Shown piece by piece: positions 2,883 through 21,316 of a DNA stretch of 44,644 nucleotides; within the stretch, counting starts at the first letter, position 1, and each line of letters begins with the position of its first letter. The notes beneath the pieces are model-generated. The model ran no database searches. It was not told the origin of the DNA and worked only from the letters and a program-made list of their open reading frames with translations. Made by a program: the position numbers and the translations under genes. The stretch is from an uncultured bacterium (lineage in GTDB: Bacteria > Patescibacteriota > Minisyncoccia > Phycocordibacterales > CAIZLB01), in NCBI GenBank assembly GCA_903864515.1, contig CAIPFZ010000027.1, positions 1-44,644 of the forward strand, read 5' to 3'.

Positions 2883-3962
2883 TTACTTCACAACCTCAAA
2901 CTCAGCACCAACAATCTTAAATAGAGTATTGTCTCTCAACTTTATTTCCTGATTATTATCAATACTTATTTTACCAACATATGTTCCTCTGTCGCGTACT
3001 TGCCTTAATTTATCAGATACACACTTCACAGTATTTTTAGAACATTCTTTCTGGTTCTCATACATCATCTTTACCATTTCATATCCAACCAAAGCAAAAT
3101 CATTTGGGTATCTGTTATATTTAGCAAAATATCTATTAGTAAAAGTTTTATCTGGATAAATAGATGTTGAAGAAAATACAACTAGCTTTTTCTGATTATC
3201 ACTCAAACTGTTTGCAACATCCTTGTTTACTGAATATGATGTTGTGTAAACCTTTGGAGAGATTCCTTGCTCAATCATTTGATTCATGAATCCTTTAAAG
3301 TAATTACTTTTTATTTCAATAAATATACAATCTGGATTATGTGACTTAACTTTAGTAACAACATCTTTAAAGTCATTTTTATCTGTTAAGAAAGTATCAT
3401 TCATTACAATCTTATCCACCCCTAAAGCCTGTGTAAAACCTTTAACTTTATCCAAACCACCGTCTGTATTTTCAGTTAAAGTAACAACCTTAGAGCATTG
3501 TTTACTTGCATTTGTACCATCTGCAAAACCGTTTTGTATCATTTCAGCACCTATTGCAAAGAAATTCTTTCCATAACTACCTATTGGTTTAACATCAGAT
3601 GTAGCGGTTGTAGAGAAAACAATTACATCGTCTTTGTTTTTAAAATTTGATGCGACAGAAATACTTGCACCTCTAAACGCTGTCATGATTATATTATTAC
3701 CATCATTGTATAATTGAAGAGCTGCATTTAAACTATCAGTAGGATTTGCTTTTCCATCTTGATAATTCAATTTAACTCCATAATCTTCTGCGGCCATATC
3801 CATTCCCCTTTTATAATCTTCCCCAACCGCTGAGACAGGACCTGTAAGTGGCAATACAACACCAACTTTTATTCCATTATCATTTATAGTTGATTTACTG
3901 ATCATAAAGACTATTATAACAATGACCACAACAACTGAAATTATTTTAATTATTTTTTTCAT
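2883..3962 (-). CDS. LivJ/LivK-like substrate-binding protein (SBP2)
   Basis: KVGVVLPLTGPVSAVG, DFKDVVTKVK..NPD, LVGYE motifs; N-terminal TM anchor. Confidence 0.88.
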   Translation of the reverse strand: MKKIIKIISVVVVIVIIVFMISKSTINDNGIKVGVVLPLTGPVSAVGEDYKRGMDMAAEDYGVKLNYQDGKANPTDSLNAALQLYNDGNNIIMTAFRGASISVASNFKNKDDVIVFSTTATSDVKPIGSYGKNFFAIGAEMIQNGFADGTNASKQCSKVVTLTENTDGGLDKVKGFTQALGVDKIVMNDTFLTDKNDFKDVVTKVKSHNPDCIFIEIKSNYFKGFMNQMIEQGISPKVYTTSYSVNKDVANSLSDNQKKLVVFSSTSIYPDKTFTNRYFAKYNRYPNDFALVGYEMVKMMYENQKECSKNTVKCVSDKLRQVRDRGTYVGKISIDNNQEIKLRDNTLFKIVGAEFEVVK

Positions 3963-4152
3963 ATTTTATTCAGCAGGACGATTCTAATGAATCACCCACT
4001 GCGTTTATTTAATATTTAACTATGTAAATTATAAGACACTTTTATATTGCTGTCAGTAATTTTAATGATATATTTCTATTTTGCATTTAGAGCTTAAGAT
4101 TAGGCTTTAAACACTCGTTTACTGTTGTCCCGTTTTGTGACAGAATATTAGC

Positions 4153-5234: not shown

Positions 5235-6326
5235 TCATCTCTCAAACTTCACAAACTTTCCATCCTTAAAGATATGTAGCTCACTTACAAGTGTCCTTGA
5301 ACCAGTCTTATCAAAGGTTATCTTTCCAGACATTCCTTCAATTGATAGTCCATCTTTCTCAAGTGTAGCCTTCCAATCTTTTTTATCTTTGCCAGCAAGA
5401 ACCTTTCCGATAACTTGCACCGCATCATACCCATAAACTCCAAGGAAGTTTGGTTCTGAATTGTAGGCCGCCTTGTATCTTTGTAGATAATCTTTACTTG
5501 TGTTATCAGCAATCATTGTTGATAGACATCCTTCAAAAGCACTGTTAGTCAAACCTTTTTTAAGATAGTCACCAATTGAAAGCTCAATGTTTCCATCGCA
5601 AATTATTTGAGGCTTCACACCTTTTGATTGCTTGTTGACCTCATTGATAAACTTAACACCTTGATCAACTCCCAAGAAAACTGTGTATGAATCGACTCCT
5701 TGATCGAGCATCTTTGAAACTTCTGTTCTAACGTCTGAGTTTGATGACACAGGTACCTCAATATATTCTTGATTACTTAGTCCTTGAATCATCATATTCT
5801 TGTTTGTCATGAAGAGCTGTGAGTCTGATGCATAAACAATCGCAACCTTTTTATACTTTCCAGAAACTTCTTTTCCTAATGTCTTAAACAACTCCGTTGC
5901 CCAAGGAATCACTTCAAAGACATTGTCTTTCTCAACCGTAGATTCATTACCAACCGTCAACATCAATTCATCTGTTTGATTAATCTTTGGTTTAAGAACC
6001 TCAAGTGTTGGGCTATCAAGACCCACAACAATATCCACATTATCAACTGATTGTAATTTGTTGTATGCAGAAAGTCCTTTTGCTGAATCGAATTGACCAT
6101 CTTCAAATATAATTTCTATATTATTATTTTGTAAATCCTTCAAACTCATCTCCATTGAATTTTTTACACTTTCACCAAACGATGCGTATTGTCCTGAAAG
6201 TGGTATAACAACTCCAACCTTTATTTTATTGTTTGTTACCGGCTTGTTGCCGTTACTGTATGATACAGCTCCCACAACAATCAGTATCAGAACCACAACC
6301 GCAATAATTATTTTTTTGTTTTTCAT
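5235..6326 (-). CDS. LivJ/LivK-like substrate-binding protein (SBP3)
   Basis: KVGVVIPLSGQYASFG, YGYDAV, GMSGKITFDKTG; start at MKNKK. Confidence 0.88.
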   Translation of the reverse strand: MKNKKIIIAVVVLILIVVGAVSYSNGNKPVTNNKIKVGVVIPLSGQYASFGESVKNSMEMSLKDLQNNNIEIIFEDGQFDSAKGLSAYNKLQSVDNVDIVVGLDSPTLEVLKPKINQTDELMLTVGNESTVEKDNVFEVIPWATELFKTLGKEVSGKYKKVAIVYASDSQLFMTNKNMMIQGLSNQEYIEVPVSSNSDVRTEVSKMLDQGVDSYTVFLGVDQGVKFINEVNKQSKGVKPQIICDGNIELSIGDYLKKGLTNSAFEGCLSTMIADNTSKDYLQRYKAAYNSEPNFLGVYGYDAVQVIGKVLAGKDKKDWKATLEKDGLSIEGMSGKITFDKTGSRTLVSELHIFKDGKFVKFER

Positions 6327-6491
6327 GTGATTTTGCGAAATCATGTCGCGCCTCCGTCCATATGGCGAGACTCTGATTGATTAATTTTTAATAACTAAAT
6401 TATGTAACAATTATAGGGTGTTGTAAAATATGGTATTTTCCAAAACTACCCCCATTTTAATCTATGTTTACAGCCATATACTCCCTATCGC

Positions 6492-7393: not shown

Positions 7394-7579
7394 TTATTTT
7401 ATAGAGTTTAACCATCTTATTGCATCTTTTGAGTTTTTGAACGTAGGAGATTTATCTGATTTCTTTTCTAAGTTGGTAGCTTTTATTATAGACTCCAAAT
7501 GTTTCGTCATCTTATACTCAGAAGGTGTATGTGATTTTTTATTTGCCACGTATTTTTTAGATACAGCTCTCTTGTTCAT
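7394..7579 (-). CDS. small hypothetical protein, possibly antitoxin-like
   Basis: 61 aa from MNKRAV; C-terminal PTFKNSKDAIRWLN resembles tails of small type II antitoxins. Confidence 0.45.
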   Translation of the reverse strand: MNKRAVSKKYVANKKSHTPSEYKMTKHLESIIKATNLEKKSDKSPTFKNSKDAIRWLNSIK

Positions 7580-7774
7580 ACCAATATAGTATATACCAAA
7601 ATCCATACGATGTGGAACATCAAGAATGTGTGTTGATGGATAAGATGTTTTAGTTTTGCAAAAAAAACAAAAGAAAAAGCCCCACGTTTTCACGCAGAGG
7701 CTATTTTATGATTTAGGGAATTGAACCCACGGCCATTCAACCGAGTGGAGAATACCACTATGAGACAACTGGGG

Positions 7775-8986: not shown

Positions 8987-10144
8987 TTATTTTGCTTCCA
9001 CAAACTCTCCACCCCTAACCCCCTTCAAAACAAACGCATCATCCTTGGTGATCACAAAACCCATCTTATCAAAGACAATCTCCGGCATTGAAGATCCTTT
9101 GGTAAATTTTATTTTTGTAATCTCATTCATTATTCCTTCCCTACTCAATTCCCTACCACTAACCACCGTCTTCCTCATCGCCTCAACTGTAACAAGCATT
9201 GCATCGTATGATGTGACGGCACTTGGCGAAAGTGGTTTGGAGCCAAATCGTGCTATATAAGCTTTTTCAAATTCTGCATATTTAGAATCTTGTCCTGGTG
9301 TACTGTAATATAGTGAACCTTCAAGAGTTCCTGTACAATTTGCCAATGCTTTAGGTGTTCCAGCAGATTCTGTTGAAAGAAGTGGAACGTTTAATCCCTG
9401 ATTCTTTGCTTGTTGAATGAGCAAGCATTCTAAATCTGCATAAGATCCAAAGACAGCATCTGGTTTTGTCTGCTTTGCTTTTGCAATCAAAGTCTTGTAA
9501 TCAGTATTTGCTAAATCATTTCCATACTCCTCACTAACAATTTCAACACCATAATCTTTTGCATGATTCTTCATCAGGTCCGATGTATATTTCCAAAATC
9601 CAAATCCAGCAGGTTGCACAATCGCAACCCTTTTATACCCCTTCTTTTTTGCAAATTTGAGTATAGTTTTGATTCCAACTTCATCAGAGTAAAATGTTCC
9701 AAAGAAATATGGAGAAGAAACTTTTTCTTCAACTTGAGGAGATGAGTTGGGACTGATTATTGGAATTTTTAAGTCCAATGATAACGGAACCGCAATTGAT
9801 GCAGAGTCATCCCATTGTGGACCAACTATTGCTAAGACCTTATCAACATTCACAAGTTTTTGTATTGCTGATGAAGTGACCTTCAATTTATCAATTGATA
9901 CATCTTCACTTATCATCTCAATTTTTCTCCCCTCTACCCCACCATTTTTATTGATATATTCAACTGCAAGCAAGGCTCCATTTCGCTCTTCTTGGCCGAC
10001 GTCTGATCCAAAGCCACTTAAAGCCGATATTTGCCCCACCTTGATGACCTTACCCTCCATTTCACCTTTATTACCAGAGAGGTACAAATACCCTCCCAAA
10101 ACCCCTATTAATACAATTGCGGCTATAATATTTATTTTTTTCAT
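8987..10144 (-). CDS. LivJ/LivK-like substrate-binding protein (SBP4)
   Basis: KVGQISALSG, INKNGGVEGRKIE, DYKTLIAK..KPD, SYDA. Confidence 0.9.
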   Translation of the reverse strand: MKKINIIAAIVLIGVLGGYLYLSGNKGEMEGKVIKVGQISALSGFGSDVGQEERNGALLAVEYINKNGGVEGRKIEMISEDVSIDKLKVTSSAIQKLVNVDKVLAIVGPQWDDSASIAVPLSLDLKIPIISPNSSPQVEEKVSSPYFFGTFYSDEVGIKTILKFAKKKGYKRVAIVQPAGFGFWKYTSDLMKNHAKDYGVEIVSEEYGNDLANTDYKTLIAKAKQTKPDAVFGSYADLECLLIQQAKNQGLNVPLLSTESAGTPKALANCTGTLEGSLYYSTPGQDSKYAEFEKAYIARFGSKPLSPSAVTSYDAMLVTVEAMRKTVVSGRELSREGIMNEITKIKFTKGSSMPEIVFDKMGFVITKDDAFVLKGVRGGEFVEAK

Positions 10145-10188: not shown

Positions 10189-10962
10189 ATGGAAAATAAA
10201 ACAAACTCTCCACTTCTGGAGAAGAACATAGGTACAATCTTAAAGAGACAAGGATTTACTAATAATGAAGTTTTGATTTATGAATATCTATTAAAGAACG
10301 GTCGATCAAAATCCGGACCAATTATTAAACATACAAAAGTAGCCAGCTCTGCATTTTATGAAGCGGTCTCTTCCCTAACAAACAAGGGGTTCATTTCTTA
10401 TGAGGTAATAAACAATATAAAATTCTATAATCCAGAAACACCCGAGAGACAAATCAATCAATTACAAAATGACATTGGAGATTTAAAAGCAATCTCTGAG
10501 ATGTTAGGAGAAATTACTTCTGCACAGCGCGATAGAAATATGATAAATGTCTATGAAGGTAATTACGGATTCAAAAGAGCGTTTGAAGAATTTACAAAGA
10601 AAGTTAATAATAAAGATCAAGTTAAAATAATTTCATATAATACAGAATATGAAAAACAATATGATTTCAGAAAGTTCTTCGTTAATCTTGATAAAGGCAT
10701 ACAAGAGCGAGGTGGTGTTGCAAAGGTGTTAATGCAAAAGGAACTTCAGGGGTTATTCAAGAAAGAAAGAGCTGGAATAAATATTTACGATATAAAAACC
10801 CTCCCCTCCAAATACTTTGGACCCTGGGCAATAGACACAACCCCGCATGAGGTTCTCATCTCCATCATTTCAGATAATCCAGTTGCAATTAGTATTAAGC
10901 ACCCAATCATTGTTGAGTCATTTAATAAGAACTTTGACTATTTGTGGGGTTCAGCGAAGTAG
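10189..10962 (+). CDS. TrmB-family regulator (pair 4)
   Basis: GFTNNEVLIYEYLL...SAFYEAVSSLTNKGFI; VYEGNYGFK; FDYLW terminus. Confidence 0.85.
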   Translation: MENKTNSPLLEKNIGTILKRQGFTNNEVLIYEYLLKNGRSKSGPIIKHTKVASSAFYEAVSSLTNKGFISYEVINNIKFYNPETPERQINQLQNDIGDLKAISEMLGEITSAQRDRNMINVYEGNYGFKRAFEEFTKKVNNKDQVKIISYNTEYEKQYDFRKFFVNLDKGIQERGGVAKVLMQKELQGLFKKERAGINIYDIKTLPSKYFGPWAIDTTPHEVLISIISDNPVAISIKHPIIVESFNKNFDYLWGSAK

Positions 10963-10976
10963 CAAAAGAGGCAACA

Positions 10977-11014
10977 TAAAATACCCAACATTTTGTATGA
11001 TGTTGGGTATTTTA
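10977..11014. terminator. bidirectional intrinsic terminator
   Basis: taaaatacccaacat...atgttgggtatttta inverted repeat. Confidence 0.8.
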
Positions 11015-11031
11015 ATTTACTGAACAGCTAA

Positions 11032-11823
11032 TTAAACCTTCACCGCACTCACTGTAATCACTAGATCATATCTCTTTCCCCATTCAACATCTGTAAAACC
11101 AAGTTTTTCAAACATTTCTATTTGCTCATTAACTGTTATCTTAACCTTTTCATCTTCCCACATGTGATTTATCCACTCTTCTCTTACCTGTCTAAAGTGA
11201 TCCGCTCTAACCAAACCCTCTGTCTTTGAAACTTCATCAGCAACGTCATCAAATTTATCATAGCTTTTTAATTCCCCATCTAAATCTTTCTTATGTGCTT
11301 CCTCATCATCTTCAGCATATTTGTCGCCGTTAATAAACACACCACCCTTTTTTAATTTTTTGGAAATAAGTTCAATAACTTTATTTCTGAAATCTGGAGT
11401 GAAGTTATGTAATGTATATACAGATGCAAATACGTCAAAACTCTCGTCTAGGCATGATTCAAGAAAGGCTAAGATATCGGCCATAACAAATTCAACCCTA
11501 CTTTTTAATTCTTCTATTGTTGCAAATCTTCCTTTAACAACATCAAGCATTTTAGGTTCATTATCAACAGCAACAACCTTGACTCTAGGATCTGCTTTAA
11601 TTAATTCAAGAGTTGTTATTCCAGTTCCAGGGCCAGCCTCTAATACTTTAATCTCTGTTGCATCAATACAATGATTTTGAAGATATTTTTTTAAAGCCAA
11701 ACCGGTTTGTGATTCAAATTCATTATACCAATCTAGTGCAAGTAATAATTCATCGTATTCTGCCCCTCCTAGAATACTTGAAAATCTGGCGTCGTAGGAG
11801 CTTATGTTTTGTTGTGTTGTCAT
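11032..11823 (-). CDS. class I SAM-dependent methyltransferase
   Basis: motif I VLEAGPGTG, VAVDNEPKML, YTLHNF, LKKGGVFINGD. Confidence 0.88.
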   Translation of the reverse strand: MTTQQNISSYDARFSSILGGAEYDELLLALDWYNEFESQTGLALKKYLQNHCIDATEIKVLEAGPGTGITTLELIKADPRVKVVAVDNEPKMLDVVKGRFATIEELKSRVEFVMADILAFLESCLDESFDVFASVYTLHNFTPDFRNKVIELISKKLKKGGVFINGDKYAEDDEEAHKKDLDGELKSYDKFDDVADEVSKTEGLVRADHFRQVREEWINHMWEDEKVKITVNEQIEMFEKLGFTDVEWGKRYDLVITVSAVKV

Positions 11824-11889
11824 AATATAATTGTATCATACAATAAAAATCATCCGGAATGAATGATTTTTATTTATTTTTACTTATTT

Positions 11890-12999
11890 TTATTTAAGTT
11901 CTACAGGTATTCCAGACTTAATGATCATTGTCTTAAAATCTTTTGTGAAAGCCCCCTTTCCATCGGAATTCAAAATACCAGATTGTCCGTCATATGTCTT
12001 AATGTTATTAAGATATTTTTGCACAACGTTTGTGTCCAGAGACTTTGTTTCCTTTATACCTTTAGCAATCAACATAACAGCATCGTAAGCTGAATCAGAT
12101 CCAATTTCCACTTCTCTATTGTAAATACTTTTATATTTTGCTGAGAAATCTGCTTTAGGAGTAAGGGCGGTTAAAAACTCCCAACCGTTACATGTTCCCT
12201 CACAATTCTTTATAACTGTATTATCTAGTGTTATGGAATATGTTGGCATCTTAATCCCCAAATCTCTCATTTGTTTTCCATATACAGAGGTTAATCCGTA
12301 ACCATCTGAAGTAACAACAATTGCTTGCAGATCTTTTATTTGCTTAAGTTTCAATAAATCTGTTCTTACGTCTCTCTGATCTGTTGTTGGTTCGTAAACA
12401 AAACTCACAACACCACCCAATTTTTCAAATCTTTCCTTGAAAGCCATAGTCTGCGCCTTACACCAAACTTCATTAGCTCCAAGTATCGCTACGTTTTTAA
12501 CACCTTTAGCAAGCACGTAATCAGCAAGCTTTGCAGAAAGAATGTAATCATGAGGCCATGTGTTGAATATGAATTTACTTGTTTCGTTAAAGTTAGCATT
12601 TCCAAGACTTGGAGAAATGACGATTTCATTAGTAATTAAATCCTTTATAGGATCGCCGTTCTTTGACCAAGATGGACCAACGATAAATTTAACACCATCT
12701 GTTTGAGTTAGCTTTCTAAACGCACCAACTGTTTTAGCTGGGTCTCCTGCATCATCTTCATGTATGGCAACAACCTTCTTACCAAGTATTCCACCTTGAT
12801 CGTTTATTTCTTTGATTGCCAAATCCATTCCATTTCTAGCAGCTTCTCCCCATGAAGCACCGTCCCCTGATTCAATCAAGATGCTACCAATTTTTATTTC
12901 ATTAATTGCAGATAAATTGTTTTGATTCTTGTTACTGACCCAAACTCCCAAGACAATCAAAATGATTATCACTATTCCAATTATTATTTTTTTATTCAT
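11890..12999 (-). CDS. LivJ/LivK-like substrate-binding protein (SBP5)
   Basis: INDQGGILGKKV, SAYDAV, GQSG..DGKG; start moved to MNKKII because the longer ORF runs through ribozyme copy 1. Confidence 0.9.
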   Translation of the reverse strand: MNKKIIIGIVIIILIVLGVWVSNKNQNNLSAINEIKIGSILIESGDGASWGEAARNGMDLAIKEINDQGGILGKKVVAIHEDDAGDPAKTVGAFRKLTQTDGVKFIVGPSWSKNGDPIKDLITNEIVISPSLGNANFNETSKFIFNTWPHDYILSAKLADYVLAKGVKNVAILGANEVWCKAQTMAFKERFEKLGGVVSFVYEPTTDQRDVRTDLLKLKQIKDLQAIVVTSDGYGLTSVYGKQMRDLGIKMPTYSITLDNTVIKNCEGTCNGWEFLTALTPKADFSAKYKSIYNREVEIGSDSAYDAVMLIAKGIKETKSLDTNVVQKYLNNIKTYDGQSGILNSDGKGAFTKDFKTMIIKSGIPVELK

Positions 13000-13041
13000 A
13001 TTATTTATATATTTGTTTAATTTTACCCCTCGAAAATATGT

Positions 13042-13124
13042 CAATTTGTTTCGTCCTTTTAGACTCATCAGGCAAGATACACATCTTGCGACAGTGGAAG
13101 TTTTAGGAGAAACTTCCAAACCGA
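13042..13124 (-). ncRNA. type III hammerhead ribozyme, copy 1, with upstream hairpin
   Basis: minus strand: UGUC^GCAAGAU-GUGU-AUCUUGC-CUGAUGA-GUCU-AAAA-GGAC-GAAACA; predicted cleavage between 13090 and 13089. Confidence 0.88.
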
Positions 13125-13134
13125 TTTGAAAAAT

Positions 13135-13623
13135 CTAGTGCCAACAATACTTAGAAGATGAATATCCCCCGATTTCACCAAATACTTCACAAGGCTTGGA
13201 CTTCTTTCCAATCATCAAAGTAAGAATTATCGGATTTTCTTCACCTCCAGTAAAAACTTGTTTGAGAATACTTTTCCAGATAGCAACATCTTCCTTTGTG
13301 CCGTAAAAAATCTTACCGATATCTCCGACACTCACGCATTCCTTTCCATGGCCAAACCCTCCACTTACGATAATGGTTGGAACCATCCAGCTCCAACACA
13401 GGCAAGCTACCTTGAACCCAGAATGTTTTTCCTCCATATTCATGTCAGAAATGACAAAATCAAATTTTGGACAATCATTTCCGACCTCATTGAAGAAATC
13501 AGCTGCGGAATTAAAAGTTGATATGTTGGCGTTTGGTAGAAATTCATTAATAGCAATAACTGCTGCTTTGAGATTTTCTGGAGTATCATCAACTATCGCA
13601 ATATTTTTGATATTGTTTTTCAT
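13135..13623 (-). CDS. stand-alone response-regulator receiver (REC)-like protein
   Basis: IAIVDD, DFVISDMNME (phospho-Asp), PTIIVSG. Confidence 0.75.
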   Translation of the reverse strand: MKNNIKNIAIVDDTPENLKAAVIAINEFLPNANISTFNSAADFFNEVGNDCPKFDFVISDMNMEEKHSGFKVACLCWSWMVPTIIVSGGFGHGKECVSVGDIGKIFYGTKEDVAIWKSILKQVFTGGEENPIILTLMIGKKSKPCEVFGEIGGYSSSKYCWH

Positions 13624-13657
13624 TTTTCTATACTTTCTACTTTTGTTTTAAAGATCT

Positions 13658-13743
13658 GGTTTCTGTTTCGTCCTTTTGGACTCATCAGGCAAGATACATA
13701 TCTTGCGACAGTGGAAGTTTTAGGAGAAACTTCCAAACCGATT
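13658..13743 (-). ncRNA. type III hammerhead ribozyme, copy 2, with upstream hairpin
   Basis: CUGUC^GCAAGAU-AUGU-AUCUUGC-CUGAUGA-GUCC-AAAA-GGAC-GAAACAG; predicted cleavage between 13707 and 13706. Confidence 0.95.
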
Positions 13744-13761
13744 ACAGTAGATACCAGTTAA

Positions 13762-14217
13762 TCATTGAAGCCTGCGAATAAACGCAAACTCAATACCGCT
13801 ACCGTATGGGACATTCATTGCGTAATCGAAACCATGGAAATGGTGAACCGCAAGAAAGACGTTACTTACAGACCTTTCTTGTCCAGGCTGTTGTGCCCTT
13901 CTAGACTCAGATGCAAAGACAAAACATTCTTCATTTCCCAACCCCTCCTGAATGACGTAATGAAATGGCAAGTAAGATGGACAAAGATCAAAGCCATCAG
14001 CAAGCGCTAAGTCAAAGAACTCCTTGCAAGGCACTACACCGGTGAGTTTGTATTTACAGCACCTCAACCCAACAAGCTCAACGGTTTCAATCTGAGGAAC
14101 TTGTCCAGGTAAAAAATGTCTTGCAATGTTTGGATATTTATTAACAGCCTTTTCTTGAAGTTGACGTCCGCTAATTCCACCAATTTGAAGACGTGGAACA
14201 ATTATTCTTTGGCACAT
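13762..14217 (-). CDS. hypothetical protein (ribozyme-flanked cargo)
   Basis: 151-aa ORF filling the interval between ribozymes 3 and 2; shared leader motif. Confidence 0.7.
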   Translation of the reverse strand: MCQRIIVPRLQIGGISGRQLQEKAVNKYPNIARHFLPGQVPQIETVELVGLRCCKYKLTGVVPCKEFFDLALADGFDLCPSYLPFHYVIQEGLGNEECFVFASESRRAQQPGQERSVSNVFLAVHHFHGFDYAMNVPYGSGIEFAFIRRLQ

Positions 14218-14246
14218 AATTTTTCTCTACTTGTTTTAATGACCAT

Positions 14247-14329
14247 GTTTCTGTTTCGTCTTTTCAGACTCATCAGGCAAGATACACATCTTGCAACAGT
14301 GGAAGTTTTAGGAGAAACTTCCAAACCGA
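14247..14329 (-). ncRNA. type III hammerhead ribozyme, copy 3, with upstream hairpin
   Basis: CUGUU^GCAAGAU-GUGU-AUCUUGC-CUGAUGA-GUCU-GAAA-AGAC-GAAACAG; GUU triplet; predicted cleavage between 14295 and 14294. Confidence 0.9.
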
Positions 14330-14336
14330 GTGTCAA

Positions 14337-14549
14337 TCAATAATCATCATCATAGTTAGGCATACGTCCGCCATTGAACCTTACATCCCTAACAATTGAT
14401 TCCATACCAGGGCCAATCTTTTTTGCCTCTTCCATTGCCTGACAGTAAAGATCCCCTGCAAGCCGATGATCATCAATTCGGCGGTCTTCTTTGAGACATT
14501 GCTTCATCAAATCATCAATCTTCTTCAGTTTTTCTCTTATATTACTCAT
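14337..14549 (-). CDS. small helical hypothetical protein (first gene of ribozyme array)
   Basis: 70-aa ORF; AAGTAGAAAGGA upstream of ATG; stop codon 7 nt before repeat copy 3. Confidence 0.65.
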   Translation of the reverse strand: MSNIREKLKKIDDLMKQCLKEDRRIDDHRLAGDLYCQAMEEAKKIGPGMESIVRDVRFNGGRMPNYDDDY

Positions 14550-14673
14550 ATTTATTCCTTTCTACTTGGTGTGCTTTATCACCAGGTTCTGACATAAATA
14601 TATTCCTAAATTACATATTGTGTTGAGAAATAGAGCTTAAATGTAATAGAATACCCATATTTCCCAATATATA

Positions 14674-14701
14674 TTGACATTCAAGGATGTGCTGTTATAA
14701 T
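14674..14701 (+). promoter_or_regulatory. sigma70-type promoter of TrmB 5
   Basis: TTGACA-16 nt-TATAAT with TG extension. Confidence 0.7.
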
Positions 14702-14737
14702 TATAGTGTAATAAATAGTTACAATTTAAATAAATAT

Positions 14738-15457
14738 ATGAATTATCCAATATTAAAAAACCTTGGCTTAGACCAAAATGAAGAAAAGACTTATTTGTTT
14801 TTGCTAGAAAACGGAGCTTCCTCCCCTACTGACATTGAAAAGAAGATAGATATTCACAGACCAATAGTTTATAAATCACTTGAGTCCTTAAAGAATAAAA
14901 ATCTAGTAACTATTTCCCCTAAAGGAAAAAGAACTCTTTACATTGCTGAGTCACCAGAAAAGCTGGAATATATTTTTAGAGAATTAGAAAAAAACTTCTT
15001 TAATGATGTAGAAGATTTACATAACCTATATGAATTAGGACAAAAGAATAAACCAAAAATTACCTACAGTGAAGGAAAACAAGCTATTCAGGATTCATAT
15101 ATGGATATACCAAACACATTAGATAAAGATGCGGAGTATTATAGGTACATGTCTGTGCAAAATTCCAATCGTGAGAAGTTTCTTCCAAAAGGATACAGAG
15201 AATTACGAGACAAGAAGGGTCTTGAGAGTATGATTATCACAAACAAGTCTTCAAAGAAGGACAAGGTAAGGCTTGGTTCTAGAGTTAAGGTATTACCAGA
15301 TTCTTGTGGACTATTTGAATATAACATTGGGCAAGTGGTATATGGAGACAAGGTAGCGATAGTTGATTATGATTCTCAATCCGTAATCACAATCAATCAC
15401 CCTAAATTTGCAGAATTTCAAAAGAAGCTTTTTAAATTGTTATTTGAGAAGATCTAA
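14738..15457 (+). CDS. TrmB-family regulator (pair 5)
   Basis: LGLDQNEEKTYLFLLENG...IHRPIVYKSLESL; YIAESPEKL; VYGDKVAIV. Confidence 0.88.
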   Translation: MNYPILKNLGLDQNEEKTYLFLLENGASSPTDIEKKIDIHRPIVYKSLESLKNKNLVTISPKGKRTLYIAESPEKLEYIFRELEKNFFNDVEDLHNLYELGQKNKPKITYSEGKQAIQDSYMDIPNTLDKDAEYYRYMSVQNSNREKFLPKGYRELRDKKGLESMIITNKSSKKDKVRLGSRVKVLPDSCGLFEYNIGQVVYGDKVAIVDYDSQSVITINHPKFAEFQKKLFKLLFEKI

Positions 15458-15961
15458 TTACTTCAACACCAATGCAATAGAGGATGCTATAATCCCTAAA
15501 ACTAAAATATTTCTGGCTAATAAAAATAGTTTTCTCTTTGGAGTGTAATAAAATTTATATATCCCAAAAATATAACTAGCTACATTTTTTACCGTCTTAT
15601 CTCTATCCTTAAGAGTTTCCAACAGCTTATTTGCATACTCTTCTGAAGAATCAAAATTTACAATGTTACCGTTAGATATTAGGTTATGCTCTTTATTTTT
15701 ATTGTTTCTTGGTGGATATATAGAATAGATACTCACTATCGCAGAAAGACCAGCAAAAAAAGCCAGTATACCAAATACAGTATTATCGCCAGAACTTTTA
15801 ATTTGAGTTGCTGAAAATGCAAATATAGCCATGCTTATACCAATTAATATATTAGCCTGACTATCAAAATGCCTGACGGATTGAACACTTTTATTCATTA
15901 TAGCCGCAGTCATTCTAATAATTGAACTATTATCCATTTCATTTGAATTATTATTTTCCAT
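15458..15961 (-). CDS. Pycsar effector (PycTM/DUF5706)-like membrane protein
   Basis: FDSQANILIG (cf. ADxKAxxLL), two TMs ending IYPP, NLI..GNI...EEY, basic KRK then third TM. Confidence 0.65.
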   Translation of the reverse strand: MENNNSNEMDNSSIIRMTAAIMNKSVQSVRHFDSQANILIGISMAIFAFSATQIKSSGDNTVFGILAFFAGLSAIVSIYSIYPPRNNKNKEHNLISNGNIVNFDSSEEYANKLLETLKDRDKTVKNVASYIFGIYKFYYTPKRKLFLLARNILVLGIIASSIALVLK

Positions 15962-16040
15962 ATTCGTATATTTTACCACAAATCACAAGACAAAAGTACA
16001 CACCTCTTTAGAAAATATGTAATCCAAGAACACTTTATAC

Positions 16041-16198: not shown

Positions 16199-17287
16199 TT
16201 ATTTCACAAACTCCGCTTGCTTATTCTTCATAACCTTAACAGATGCTTCTGTTATAAACAGACCATCCTTATCAATCTTAGTCTTTCCAAACAAAACAGA
16301 ATTGTATTCACCGTCTTTGTTTAGCATCTTAGCAAAATCCTCAGATGACAACTTATTTTTAGAATTCTCTTGAGACTTAATCATAAGAGTAACCAAGTCA
16401 TAAACATAAGCCGATCCAGGTTTTGGAGTATGACCATAAGTTTTTACAAACTTATCTGTAAACTCTTGAGGAACAACAGAGTCTCCAACAAACCACATCC
16501 CTTCATAAAGCTCAGGCTCGTTACTCCACTCAAATGACTCAGCAGATGTAATCTTAAACTTAGCACCTAAATCCTTCGCTTGTTTTGTAAACAACTCTAT
16601 TTCTGGTGAAAACAAAACTAGTGCAACTATTTCTGGATTTTCACCCTTAAGTTTTGTAATCAATGTTCTGAAATCTTTATCACCAACATTTGTTAAATTA
16701 TATGAAGTCAATTTAACATTAGAAGTTTCTAGTGCTTTTTTAATGCCACCAGAAACTGCCATTGTACCTGGATGATTTGCGTCTACGATAGCAACTGTTT
16801 TATGAGCTCTTTTATCTATTTCTTTAACTAACAAATCACCTTCTTTATACGCTGGAGTCCAGTGTATAAAGTTGTATTCCCCTATCGCAGAAGTTGGATC
16901 AGAAGCAAGACCAAATCTTGGTATTTTTGCATTCTCATTTACAGGGGCTGATGCGTTACTTGTACCAGATCCGAAAGTAATTATTGACCAAACCTTATCT
17001 ACATTAATAAACTTTGTAATAGCTGTTACAGTTTTTGTTGGATTGAAAGCATCATCTTCAAACACAAGACTGTAATTATATTTTGTATTTCCTGCGTCTT
17101 TCAAAGCTAGCTCAGCAGCTTGTTTTGCAGACTCACCTAGAAAAGCAGCTCCACCAGTTAACGGAAGAGACAGACCAATTTTAACAGGTTCATTTGTATC
17201 AGACTTTTTACTGAATACACCAGAAAGTGTGGACATCAACAGAATGGCTACTATAACGACAATTCCTATAATAATTTTCTTTTTCAT
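16199..17287 (-). CDS. LivJ/LivK-like substrate-binding protein (SBP6)
   Basis: KIGLSLPLTGGAAFLG, DFRTLITKLK..NPE, YVYD. Confidence 0.9.
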   Translation of the reverse strand: MKKKIIIGIVVIVAILLMSTLSGVFSKKSDTNEPVKIGLSLPLTGGAAFLGESAKQAAELALKDAGNTKYNYSLVFEDDAFNPTKTVTAITKFINVDKVWSIITFGSGTSNASAPVNENAKIPRFGLASDPTSAIGEYNFIHWTPAYKEGDLLVKEIDKRAHKTVAIVDANHPGTMAVSGGIKKALETSNVKLTSYNLTNVGDKDFRTLITKLKGENPEIVALVLFSPEIELFTKQAKDLGAKFKITSAESFEWSNEPELYEGMWFVGDSVVPQEFTDKFVKTYGHTPKPGSAYVYDLVTLMIKSQENSKNKLSSEDFAKMLNKDGEYNSVLFGKTKIDKDGLFITEASVKVMKNKQAEFVK

Positions 17288-20120: not shown

Positions 20121-21233
20121 TTACAGATTCGCAAAAGTTCCGTCTGTATTAACCTTTCTCCAAACCAACTTCTTATTTATATTCTGACATGATCCGTCAA
20201 AAGATACGTCACCAGTAATACCCTTAAACTCTGCCATTTTTGGTAAGTACTCAGCAATCTTTTTTGGATTTCCTCCAACTTCATTTATTGCCTTGCTTAA
20301 AATATTGTATGAATCGTAGGTTAATGCACCGAGGAGTATAGGCGAAGCGTTATAATTTGATGTGTATGTATTTGAATAATTTACAGCATCTGAATTTGCA
20401 TTAAGATCCGCCTGTGGAGAATACATGTAGTCAACAAATTTTACATCCTTAGCGATAGTTCTATTTTTAAGATTAGGACTTGTAATTGTCCAGATATCGG
20501 AAACGATAGGCTTAGACCAACCCATTTCTTTTAACTGATTAAACATTGGCTCTGGTGTAATATTATTAATTACAACCAGTGCATCTATATCTTTTTGTTT
20601 TTCAGTTAACTTTAAGATATTGGATCTTAGGTCTCCTGATGCCTGATCGTATATTTCAACACCCACAACTTCTCCACCAAGTTCCACAAATGATGCTTTG
20701 ACTTGCTCAATCATCACTTTTCCATATTCATTATTTGGAGACAGCATCGCAATCTTTTTATATTTCAATGTATTATTTACATACTCCGAAATAGAACCGC
20801 CTAATATATCTGCGGTTAATCCGATTCTACATGTTAATGGACTATCATCAGTAAAAGCTGGTGTTGTTGCCGATTGTGCGAAGATCATGATTCCATCCTG
20901 TACAGCTTTTTCTCTCACTGCGGCAACCACAGGACTTCCATCGGCAATGATTATTTTTACCCCCTTCATCTTAAGTGCTTCGTATCCCGAAACAGATGTC
21001 TTTGGATCATATCTTGAGTCCTCATAAATTAGTTCGATTTTTTCATTTGGATTGTCTTTTACCACCATGGCAAGCGCATTCTTTTGAACTTCCCCCGCAA
21101 TTGCAAGTGGGCCAGAAAGAGGAGTTAGAACTCCAATCTTAATTTTTCCATTATCATCTTCCTTATTAACACCAAGAACTACTAAAATAATCACTACAAT
21201 AATAATGATTGCCCAAATAATTTTCTTTTTCAT
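20121..21233 (-). CDS. LivJ/LivK-like substrate-binding protein (SBP7)
   Basis: KIGVLTPLSGPLAIAG, NNEYG, TYDS, FKGITGDVSFD. Confidence 0.9.
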   Translation of the reverse strand: MKKKIIWAIIIIVVIILVVLGVNKEDDNGKIKIGVLTPLSGPLAIAGEVQKNALAMVVKDNPNEKIELIYEDSRYDPKTSVSGYEALKMKGVKIIIADGSPVVAAVREKAVQDGIMIFAQSATTPAFTDDSPLTCRIGLTADILGGSISEYVNNTLKYKKIAMLSPNNEYGKVMIEQVKASFVELGGEVVGVEIYDQASGDLRSNILKLTEKQKDIDALVVINNITPEPMFNQLKEMGWSKPIVSDIWTITSPNLKNRTIAKDVKFVDYMYSPQADLNANSDAVNYSNTYTSNYNASPILLGALTYDSYNILSKAINEVGGNPKKIAEYLPKMAEFKGITGDVSFDGSCQNINKKLVWRKVNTDGTFANL

Positions 21234-21316
21234 ATATAACAATTTTACTCTTTATCGCCTTAAAATACAACACAAATACAGATTAAAATGTATTTCTATT
21301 ACATATTATCTAGGCA

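Follow-up and report, generated by a model that had tools for sequence, protein, structure and literature searches.

Type III hammerhead ribozymes with a 5′ hairpin between the genes of a candidate operon in a small-genome bacterium of the Patescibacteria type

The window analysed here, a stretch of 44,644 nucleotides (nt) corresponding to contig CAIPFZ010000027.1 of an uncultured bacterium of the Patescibacteriota (assembly GCA_903864515.1), carries on its minus strand a series of small genes separated by three repeats with the features of type III hammerhead ribozymes. Between positions 11890 and 15457, the three small genes and the ribozymes are placed between a divergent promoter region and the gene of a solute-binding protein. 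The first small gene of the putative transcript, ORF70 (14337 to 14549), matches no Pfam family and has a 54%-identical homologue at the same place in G002, a genome of the same genus. It is followed by ORF151 (13762 to 14217), a near-orphan gene without Pfam match that is absent from this sister genome, and by ORF162 (13135 to 13623), for which G002 contains a homologue of 47.5% identity, again at the same place. ORF162 had been called a receiver protein (REC162) in an earlier note made from the sequence of the window; the match to Response_reg exists but is weak (E = 4.1e-4, 20.9 bits for a cut-off of 30.2), and the protein is described here as a stand-alone, receiver-like candidate. Downstream of the third repeat, the last unit encodes a Peripla_BP_6 solute-binding protein (11890 to 12999; E = 7.5e-45; 88% identical to its G002 orthologue), and not a protein of the SBP_bac_5 type as the name SBP5 given previously implied. 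The following gene, for an S-adenosylmethionine-dependent methyltransferase (11032 to 11823; Methyltransf_25, E = 2.4e-14), probably belongs to the same transcript, no terminator-like site being found from 10900 to 14800. On the plus strand, a TrmB-family regulator (14674 to 15457; Pfam TrmB, E = 1e-14) is divergently oriented, with a promoter at 14674 to 14701 that matches 12 of 12 consensus positions and carries a TG. A weak promoter-like site on the minus strand (14597 to 14626; 9 of 12 consensus positions) is the candidate start of the transcript that would contain the repeats.

The three direct repeats are located between positions 13017 and 14329 of the minus strand with start-to-start spacings of 617 and 588 nt, and the aligned copies are 92% identical per column over a core of 96 nt. 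ORF70, ORF151 and ORF162 are each followed by one repeat, which begins 4 to 17 nt past the stop codon. The repeats behind ORF70 and ORF151 end 21 to 27 nt ahead of the next start codon, and about 33 nt separate the end of the repeat behind ORF162 from the ATG at 12999 that opens the binding-protein gene. The conserved unit measures about 96 to 108 nt and not about 80 nt as first estimated, because a hairpin upstream of the ribozyme, which had been missed, belongs to it. Read from 5′ to 3′ on the minus strand, the unit is composed of this hairpin of 8 base pairs (bp), with GGAAGUUU and AAACUUCC as its strands and CUCCUA as its loop, one A, the sequence CUGU forming the 5′ strand of stem III, the cleavage nucleotide, the 7-bp stem I with a 4-nt loop, CUGAUGA, the 4-bp stem II closed by AAAA or GAAA, GAA, and finally ACAG, the 3′ strand of stem III. 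The core elements CUGAUGA, GAA and A15.1/U16.1 are found in the three copies. The Rfam alignment shows them with the topology of type III, in which loops close stems I and II whereas stem III is left open. Both loops are conserved across the family, with loop I close to UGUGU and AAAA or GAAA as loop II.

The first copy consists of a 5′ hairpin at 14301 to 14322 (GGAAGUUU, the loop CUCCUA and AAACUUCC) and a hammerhead at 14251 to 14299 with the triplet GUU (14297-14295). In the second, the hairpin lies at 13713 to 13734 and the hammerhead at 13663 to 13711, with the triplet GUC (13709-13707); in the third, the corresponding positions are 13096 to 13117 and 13046 to 13094, again with GUC (13092-13090). 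The three hairpins were deduced from the sequence, from the minimum-free-energy folds and from covariation. The last pair of stem II is U-A in the copy cut after 14295, C-G in the copy cut after 13707 and U-G in the copy cut after 13090. Stem III has 4 bp, except in the 13090 copy, where a C-A mismatch leaves 3 bp; this copy is the only one of 51 related-genome copies that is unpaired at the outer stem III pair. Cleavage is predicted at 14295|14294, 13707|13706 and 13090|13089, that is 42 to 55 nt past the stop codons, and would delimit two units of 588 nt (14294 to 13707) and 617 nt (13706 to 13090). The earlier note had recognized the position of the repeats just behind the stop codons of small minus-strand genes, the triplets, the 7-bp stem I, the 4-bp stem II with its variable pair, the cut sites and the length of the two units, and all these readings agree with the sequence.

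At the Rfam gathering scores, no match was obtained in the window. When matches were taken by E-value, the model RF00008 (Hammerhead_3) recognized exactly three sites, which coincide with the three repeats: hammerhead 1 with 38.0 bits (E = 3.5e-6), hammerhead 2 with 41.5 bits (E = 3.6e-7) and hammerhead 3 with 30.6 bits (E = 4.3e-4, local match 5-50). The type III call made from the letters was recovered at the three sites, although below the gathering score in each case. The genome of the window counts 934,535 bases in 77 contigs and is 83% complete; across these 934 kb, RF00008 gave no match beyond the same three sites. We then used a covariance model built on the 96-nt unit (R1), which scores the three copies at 118.4, 120.2 and 114.4 bits, respectively. 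Full-length matches to R1 are present in 46 of the 151 genomes of the order to which the window belongs, its own genome included.

The secondary structure was evaluated by the covariation found in these homologues. In 51 related-genome copies from 30 loci, fitted to the model, 96.5% of the pair cells are standard-paired as compared to 70.5% in shuffles and 34 to 52% with slid partners, and changes on both sides occur at 21 of the 23 pairs. Similar values were observed for 115 viral copies (96.9% paired versus 64.4% in shuffles, with both-sided changes at 20 of 23 pairs). Because the 51-copy alignment had been fitted to the model, a model-free analysis was performed with MAFFT and RNAalifold on 25 copies, one per locus. 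It yielded exactly the three hammerhead stems, and 12 of their 15 pairs show compensatory changes. The core CUGAUGA is kept in 44 of the 51 related-genome copies and in 102 of the 115 viral copies; nearly all others differ only at position 7, which is U, C or A across the homologues. The GAA is essentially invariant in both sets, and G never occurs as the cleavage nucleotide (H17), which is C, U or A. The hammerhead core is known to be free at two positions, namely position 7 and the cleavage nucleotide. Furthermore, G-U pairs occur on one strand only among the 51 and the 115 copies, and the structure is therefore read as RNA in the sense orientation. These data strongly suggest that the three repeats are very probably genuine hammerheads.

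The 8-bp hairpin is found directly upstream of each ribozyme and ends 1 nt before stem III. It is folded in every minimum-free-energy structure of the window copies. Its helix is paired in 90.9% of the cells in the related genomes and in 93.8% in the viral copies, and all eight pairs covary. Since model-fitted alignments lean towards the model, the hairpin was also evaluated independently. For copies located by a pattern restricted to the core and stem II, a segment of 45 nt directly 5′ of stem III was folded; a fold was counted if it reached −8 kcal/mol or less and ended at most 4 nt before stem III, windows located 120 nt further upstream serving as controls. In the viral contigs, such a stable fold was observed in 43 of 57 cases versus 8 of 57 controls, with mean free energies of −14.6 and −6.1 kcal/mol, respectively. 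In the genome contigs, the values were 90 of 117 versus 50 of 117, and −11.7 versus −9.1 kcal/mol. The excess in the genome set is real but weaker than in the viral set. The MAFFT and RNAalifold analysis of 25 copies did not recover the 5′ hairpin, because its sequences are too variable to be aligned without a model, and the evidence for it comes from the model-fitted alignments together with the free-energy tests.

Other pairings around the hairpin were considered and rejected as features of the family. An extension of stem III across the hairpin can be drawn in the window (GGUUU with AAAC, and UCGGUU with AAUUGA in the 13090 copy). In the related genomes, the best helix has a mean of 4.28 as compared to 4.03 in shuffles; 12 of 500 shuffles and 161 of 500 partner permutations attain the observed mean, and the viral copies show no excess. 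A pseudoknot between the 5′ flank and the loop of the hairpin gave a small excess in the related-genome copies (3.56 versus 3.05-3.19, reached by 0 of 500 shuffles) and none in the viral copies; the window copies pair over only 2 bp.

Additional hairpins occur near the element in some relatives. In one sub-family, the upstream gene has its stop codon inside an extra small hairpin (TAGTGG, 5 nt, CCACTA; loci L006:1456-1552, L009:1501-1595, L016, L030 and L011), and a covarying version, TAGTAG/CTACTA, is found at L011:2159. Many relatives carry near-perfect hairpins of 15 to 25 bp between the ribozyme and the next start codon, 30 to 70 nt past the ribozyme (L016, L017, L018, L019, L020, L022, L023, L027 and L028); the window has none. 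A conserved motif, AAGTTCTTT or AAGATCTTT, stands right behind stem III in many related-genome copies (L013, L015, L016, L018, L020, L021, L023, L030, L031 and L032), and the middle copy of the window has GATCTTT directly after stem III.

We then analyzed how the element is distributed and placed in the order of the window, where 98 matches (E ≤ 0.01) were obtained in 46 genomes. If an array is defined as two or more same-strand copies within 2 kb, 56 of the 98 copies are members of 19 arrays in 18 genomes, with up to 5 copies each. Copies within an array are spaced 228 to 1323 nt apart (median 576 nt), and the 588 and 617 nt of the window are typical of arrays. Among 51 elements examined, 41 have a called upstream gene, and in 28 of these cases the start of the element falls within −10 to +20 nt of the stop codon. 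Small, mostly unmatched genes flank the element: among 64 of them, 3 match Response_reg and 5 match one Pfam family each, while PHROG matches were obtained in at most 5, all weak. This layout of hammerheads between genes is common in the bacterial group of the window. In the array of five ribozymes of G054 (L170), we noted a direct repeat of about 100 nt that brackets the array (3962-4060 and 7503-7600) and includes the 5′ hairpin of the ribozyme; the array ends in an intrinsic terminator near 7690.

The element occurs in 45 of the 150 other genomes of the order. In phylum-wide samples, for which 27 candidates were scored per genome so that weak matches may be lost, it was found in 17 of 150 other genomes drawn evenly from the phylum of the window and in 0 of 150 other genomes from the phylum of genome G300 (labelled Pseudomonadota). 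A search with the exact core pattern over one genome per prokaryote species gave at least 119 stretches. Among the 80 matches listed, 55 bear Patescibacteria-type names (24 of them Saccharibacteria) and 7 bear the names of other phyla, the pattern being derived from the window's own copies and hence favouring relatives. The matches listed include Candidatus Nanosynbacter, a group with members that can be cultivated. Copies were also seen on contigs of four genomes labelled Bacteroidales (G301:C221), Pseudomonadota (G300:C196), Polynucleobacter (G302:C50) and delta proteobacterium (G303:C21), with 2 or 3 copies within about 1 kb each; these may be binned phage fragments, because at least two of the contigs are only a few kb long.

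The core pattern also matches more than 120 contig stretches of IMG/VR. With the model R2, 122 matches (E ≤ 0.01) were obtained among the 80 viral loci listed, with up to 6 copies at one locus (L108) and 5 at another (L074), the hairpin being included in the element. These viral elements abut the stop codons very tightly. The family is therefore common to phages and to these small-genome bacteria. In the viral array L074, 1 of 10 scanned genes matched any PHROG or Pfam family, and the gene context of these 10 genes gave no clue to a function. R2 also matches records of 366 to 457 nt in the viral collection, with scores of 36 to 55 bits (L090, 366 nt; L114, 377 nt; L097, 457 nt); these look like circular RNAs of the viroid or satellite type with classical type III hammerheads.

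The surroundings of the repeats are ordinary chromosomal DNA, with genes for a tRNA synthetase, permeases, glycosyltransferases, a sigma factor and a Y-family polymerase among others. Between 205 and 21242, the window contains repeated modules made of a divergent TrmB-family regulator and an operon led by a Peripla_BP_6 gene, and the ribozymes are present in one module only. The binding-protein genes are located at 5235-6344, 8987-10144, 11890-12999, 16199-17287 and 20121-21242, and Pfam identified three more in the remainder of the window. The region 15458 to 15979 encodes a 173-amino-acid membrane protein with a weak, sub-threshold match to PycTM, the Pycsar effector transmembrane family (24.2 versus 27.2 bits). 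No paralogues of the cargo genes were found in the window. Between 10900 and 14800, neither a terminator-like site nor a strong internal promoter on the minus strand was detected, and because no terminator-like site interrupts this region, co-transcription from ORF70 to the methyltransferase gene is plausible.

We propose that one minus-strand transcript, probably starting near 14600, contains ORF70, ORF151, ORF162, the Peripla_BP_6 gene and the methyltransferase gene, and that the repeats are active type III hammerheads, each fused to a hairpin on its 5′ side. Each ribozyme would probably cut the nascent transcript after its GUH triplet. The upstream piece would then terminate with the stable hairpin followed by 6 nt and a 2′,3′-cyclic phosphate, and the downstream piece would begin with a 5′-OH guanosine engaged in a stem I pair from the start; stem II and an A-rich leader would come next. 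In this way, the operon would be converted into separate mRNAs of 588 and 617 nt and two end pieces. With both ends structured, the stability and the translation of these mRNAs would no longer depend on their neighbours. The hairpin may in addition shield stem III from unwinding by the terminating ribosome. A terminating ribosome covers some 12 to 15 nt past the stop codon. In Bacillus subtilis, RNase J is blocked by stem-loops at the very 5′ end of an RNA, and 3′ exonucleases by hairpins at the 3′ end. Genes for RNase J, RNase Y and two exonucleases of the RNB type are present in the genome of the window; RNase E/G was not found in this 83%-complete assembly. The anatomy of the ribozymes, their conservation and their position relative to the genes are observed. 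We infer that the genes are co-transcribed, that cleavage takes place in the cell and that both end structures are protective, and differential stabilisation of the pieces, which the earlier note had listed among other outcomes, appears to be the best reading.

Several points weigh against this proposal. The three RF00008 scores (41.5, 38.0 and 30.6 bits) are all below the gathering score of 48.5, a threshold that is a curation rule and not a biological property; the shortfall comes from loop II, which at 4 nt is shorter than in the Rfam consensus, and from the longer stem I. With 4 bp, stem III is short, and the 13090 copy may cut poorly because its stem III has 3 bp plus a mismatch. The GUU triplet, the type of the 14295 copy, is slower than GUC. 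In the hairpin test on genome copies, the rate among the controls was high (50 of 117). The candidate promoter on the minus strand is weak, and such matches are no commoner here than in shuffles. Finally, in organisms with RNase J an exposed 5′-OH can trigger decay, as with glmS; cleavage could therefore lower the expression of the downstream genes instead of raising it, and the sign of the effect is uncertain. Considering all the evidence, we assign a probability of around 60% to active ribozymes that cut the operon into hairpin-ended mRNAs. On the separate issue of whether the role of the element is to process and stabilise the messages, the balance is even.

Among the other explanations, the first places the function at the level of DNA: an orphan gene and its ribozyme would form a cassette that is gained, lost or duplicated by recombination between repeats. 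The ribozyme would then mainly allow an inserted gene to be expressed without disturbance of the operon, in the manner of phage morons. The cargo was indeed described as variable from the outset, and the comparison with G002 bears this out in part. Its locus is syntenic (77% DNA identity for the TrmB gene and 78% for the binding-protein gene) and contains two ribozymes and the homologues of ORF70 and ORF162, without ORF151. In addition, 13707 is connected directly with 14296 in one contig of the run X4, so that exactly 588 nt are left out, and ORF151 is present on a second contig of this run. The three copies of the window are 83 to 88% identical, for a median of 50% within arrays and a mean of 47% between loci, which suggests a recent duplication or gene conversion at this locus. 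At L030, two 97%-identical ribozymes flank paralogous genes, as expected for a tandem duplication, and the cargo of the arrays is diverse, at most 8 of 64 flanking genes having a Pfam match. However, the X4 joint falls within 34 nt that both repeats have in common, just over the length of the 31-letter words of the assembly, and may for this reason be an assembly artefact, and one indel between two genomes is a single event. The comparison could not be extended to further genomes of the genus: the best Peripla_BP_6 matches are of 57% identity in G003, 49% in G005 and 38% in G004, and no match at E ≤ 1e-40 was obtained in G001 or G006. Arrays are not usually built of near-identical repeats; in most of them the copies differ as much as between genomes, which argues against frequent shuffling mediated by the repeats. 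No recombinase is encoded nearby: the window's contig gave no match to the tyrosine recombinase family Phage_integrase, and the only tyrosine recombinase of the genome is located on contig C18. Moreover, a search of the viral contigs, limited by its method to close relatives, gave none for ORF151 or ORF162. Cargo variation is real but thin, and we regard both the exchange of cassettes and the moron-like service to inserted genes as possible but unlikely explanations.

The ribozymes could also be a leftover of phage DNA that serves phages and has no selected role in the host. The element and its hairpin are abundant in the viral contigs, with the 122 matches in the 80 loci listed and up to 6 per locus, and clusters of hammerheads were first described in prophages (Perreault et al. 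2011, PMC3088659). ORF151 is also close to an orphan: only two sequence relatives were found among 1.84 billion representatives (45% and 36% identity), a word-indexed search returned nothing but ORF151 itself, and its Atlas model resembles fold families of hypothetical proteins, the few named members of which are mostly from Minisyncoccota. Against this origin, the rest of the window is ordinary chromosome, and phage or integrase families are absent from the 25 listed of its 39 matched Pfam families. The PHROG matches of the genes flanking the element, 5 of 64 at most, are all weak. Furthermore, the locus and the outer two ribozymes are kept in G002, the latter at 80 to 84% identity and thus above the identity of the surrounding genes, and the three cores are intact. 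An inert phage remnant is in our view improbable.

That the repeats are look-alikes that do not cleave and form an ordinary intergenic repeat would fit with the Rfam scores and with the short stem III, but is very unlikely: the catalytic core is kept across 166 homologues with variation only where hammerheads tolerate it, all the stems show compensatory changes, and the restriction of G-U pairs to one strand indicates that the element is read as sense RNA.

The least credible explanation is that the 588- and 617-nt units are ligated into circular RNAs by an RtcB-type ligase or copied back into DNA as in retrozymes, as the earlier note had envisaged: double cleavage would leave the 5′-OH and 2′,3′-cyclic phosphate ends that are established substrates of such ligases, and the genome has one RVT_1 gene, but RtcB was not found in the 83%-complete genome, was found in 3 of the order's 151 genomes (of these three, G068 alone contains the element, in one copy) and in none of the 18 genomes with arrays, the RVT_1 gene adjoins the gene of EF-G on another contig (C29) without link to the array, the units are protein-coding with leaders and start codons, and no circular or spliced products of such arrays were detected where they had been sought (PMC3088659). 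With RtcB not found and RVT_1 unlinked, neither RNA circles nor a retrozyme-like capture of the variable cargo are supported. The RVT_1 gene encodes a reverse transcriptase of 470 amino acids (G000:C29:2039-2461; L034 1027-2439).

The arrangement itself has precedents. According to Perreault et al. (PMC3088659), hammerheads flank individual variable genes in prophages, the long transcripts were proposed to be processed into gene-length mRNAs, and tandem arrangements from three bacteria were cleaved in vitro into fragments of the expected sizes. The 2019 review PMC6765202 describes self-cleaving ribozymes of bacteria as clustered, both with one another and close to particular genes, mentions the suggestion that polycistronic transcripts are processed into mRNAs of differing stability, and qualifies the roles of bacterial hammerheads as "largely elusive". 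The view that one hammerhead per gene is unusual therefore does not stand, given this precedent and the 56 of 98 copies of the order that belong to arrays. The array of the window resembles those of the prophages in that several hammerheads occur in one putative transcription unit between small, inconstant genes (three copies here, 19 arrays in the relatives, and at most 8 of 64 flanking genes with a Pfam match). It differs from them by its location in the leader of a chromosomal operon (TrmB/Peripla_BP_6) of a 0.9-Mb, Patescibacteria-type genome instead of a prophage, and by the fact that all the copies are of type III with a conserved 5′ hairpin. This hairpin is not mentioned in the available text of PMC3088659, the supplementary alignments of which may show one. 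With the hammerheads of plant viroids and satellite RNAs covered by RF00008, the element has in common the core, a topology of three stems and a stem III that is open, whereas its loop II is shorter (4 nt), its stem I is longer than the consensus, and it is embedded in an mRNA between genes instead of a replicating circular RNA.

Self-cleaving RNAs that set the 5′ end and the fate of a downstream message are also known from the glmS ribozyme, which is ligand-dependent and whose 5′-OH end promotes decay by RNase J1, and from RiboJ, a synthetic insulator with a hairpin on the 3′ side. In the present case, in contrast, a domain for a ligand is not evident, and the hairpin stands 5′ of the ribozyme and would stay with the upstream product. 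Retrozymes and integron arrays likewise have repeated structured elements that separate short variable units. However, retrozymes are non-coding, eukaryotic and mobilised by reverse transcriptase, and no reverse transcriptase is linked here; integron cassettes need IntI and attC, and no integrase is nearby; and the repeats of the window are conserved as an RNA structure with G-U pairs and not as DNA recombination sites. We found no relevant paper in the literature that joins hammerheads with Patescibacteria, the candidate phyla radiation or Saccharibacteria. The new points are the enrichment of the element in Patescibacteria and the conserved 5′ hairpin, the kind of array being already known.

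The locus leaves the concept of such arrays unchanged and makes the role of bacterial hammerheads easier to test. Since the array is found in a plain chromosomal operon, effects on the host can be separated from the biology of a phage, and the idea that the hairpin stays on the upstream product can be addressed by mutations. The broadest form of the proposal, in which the hairpin and the type III hammerhead constitute a general and portable punctuation mark in Patescibacteria and their phages, is tentative, and we consider it rather doubtful at this stage. If it is true, the unit would turn operons into mRNAs with a hairpin at both ends in cells devoid of RNase E, and orphan genes could be slotted into existing operons, duplicated there or dropped, no new promoter or terminator being needed. 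In that case, the window would show a recent instance, with the extra cassette ORF151 and three near-identical marks in the leader of a binding-protein operon.

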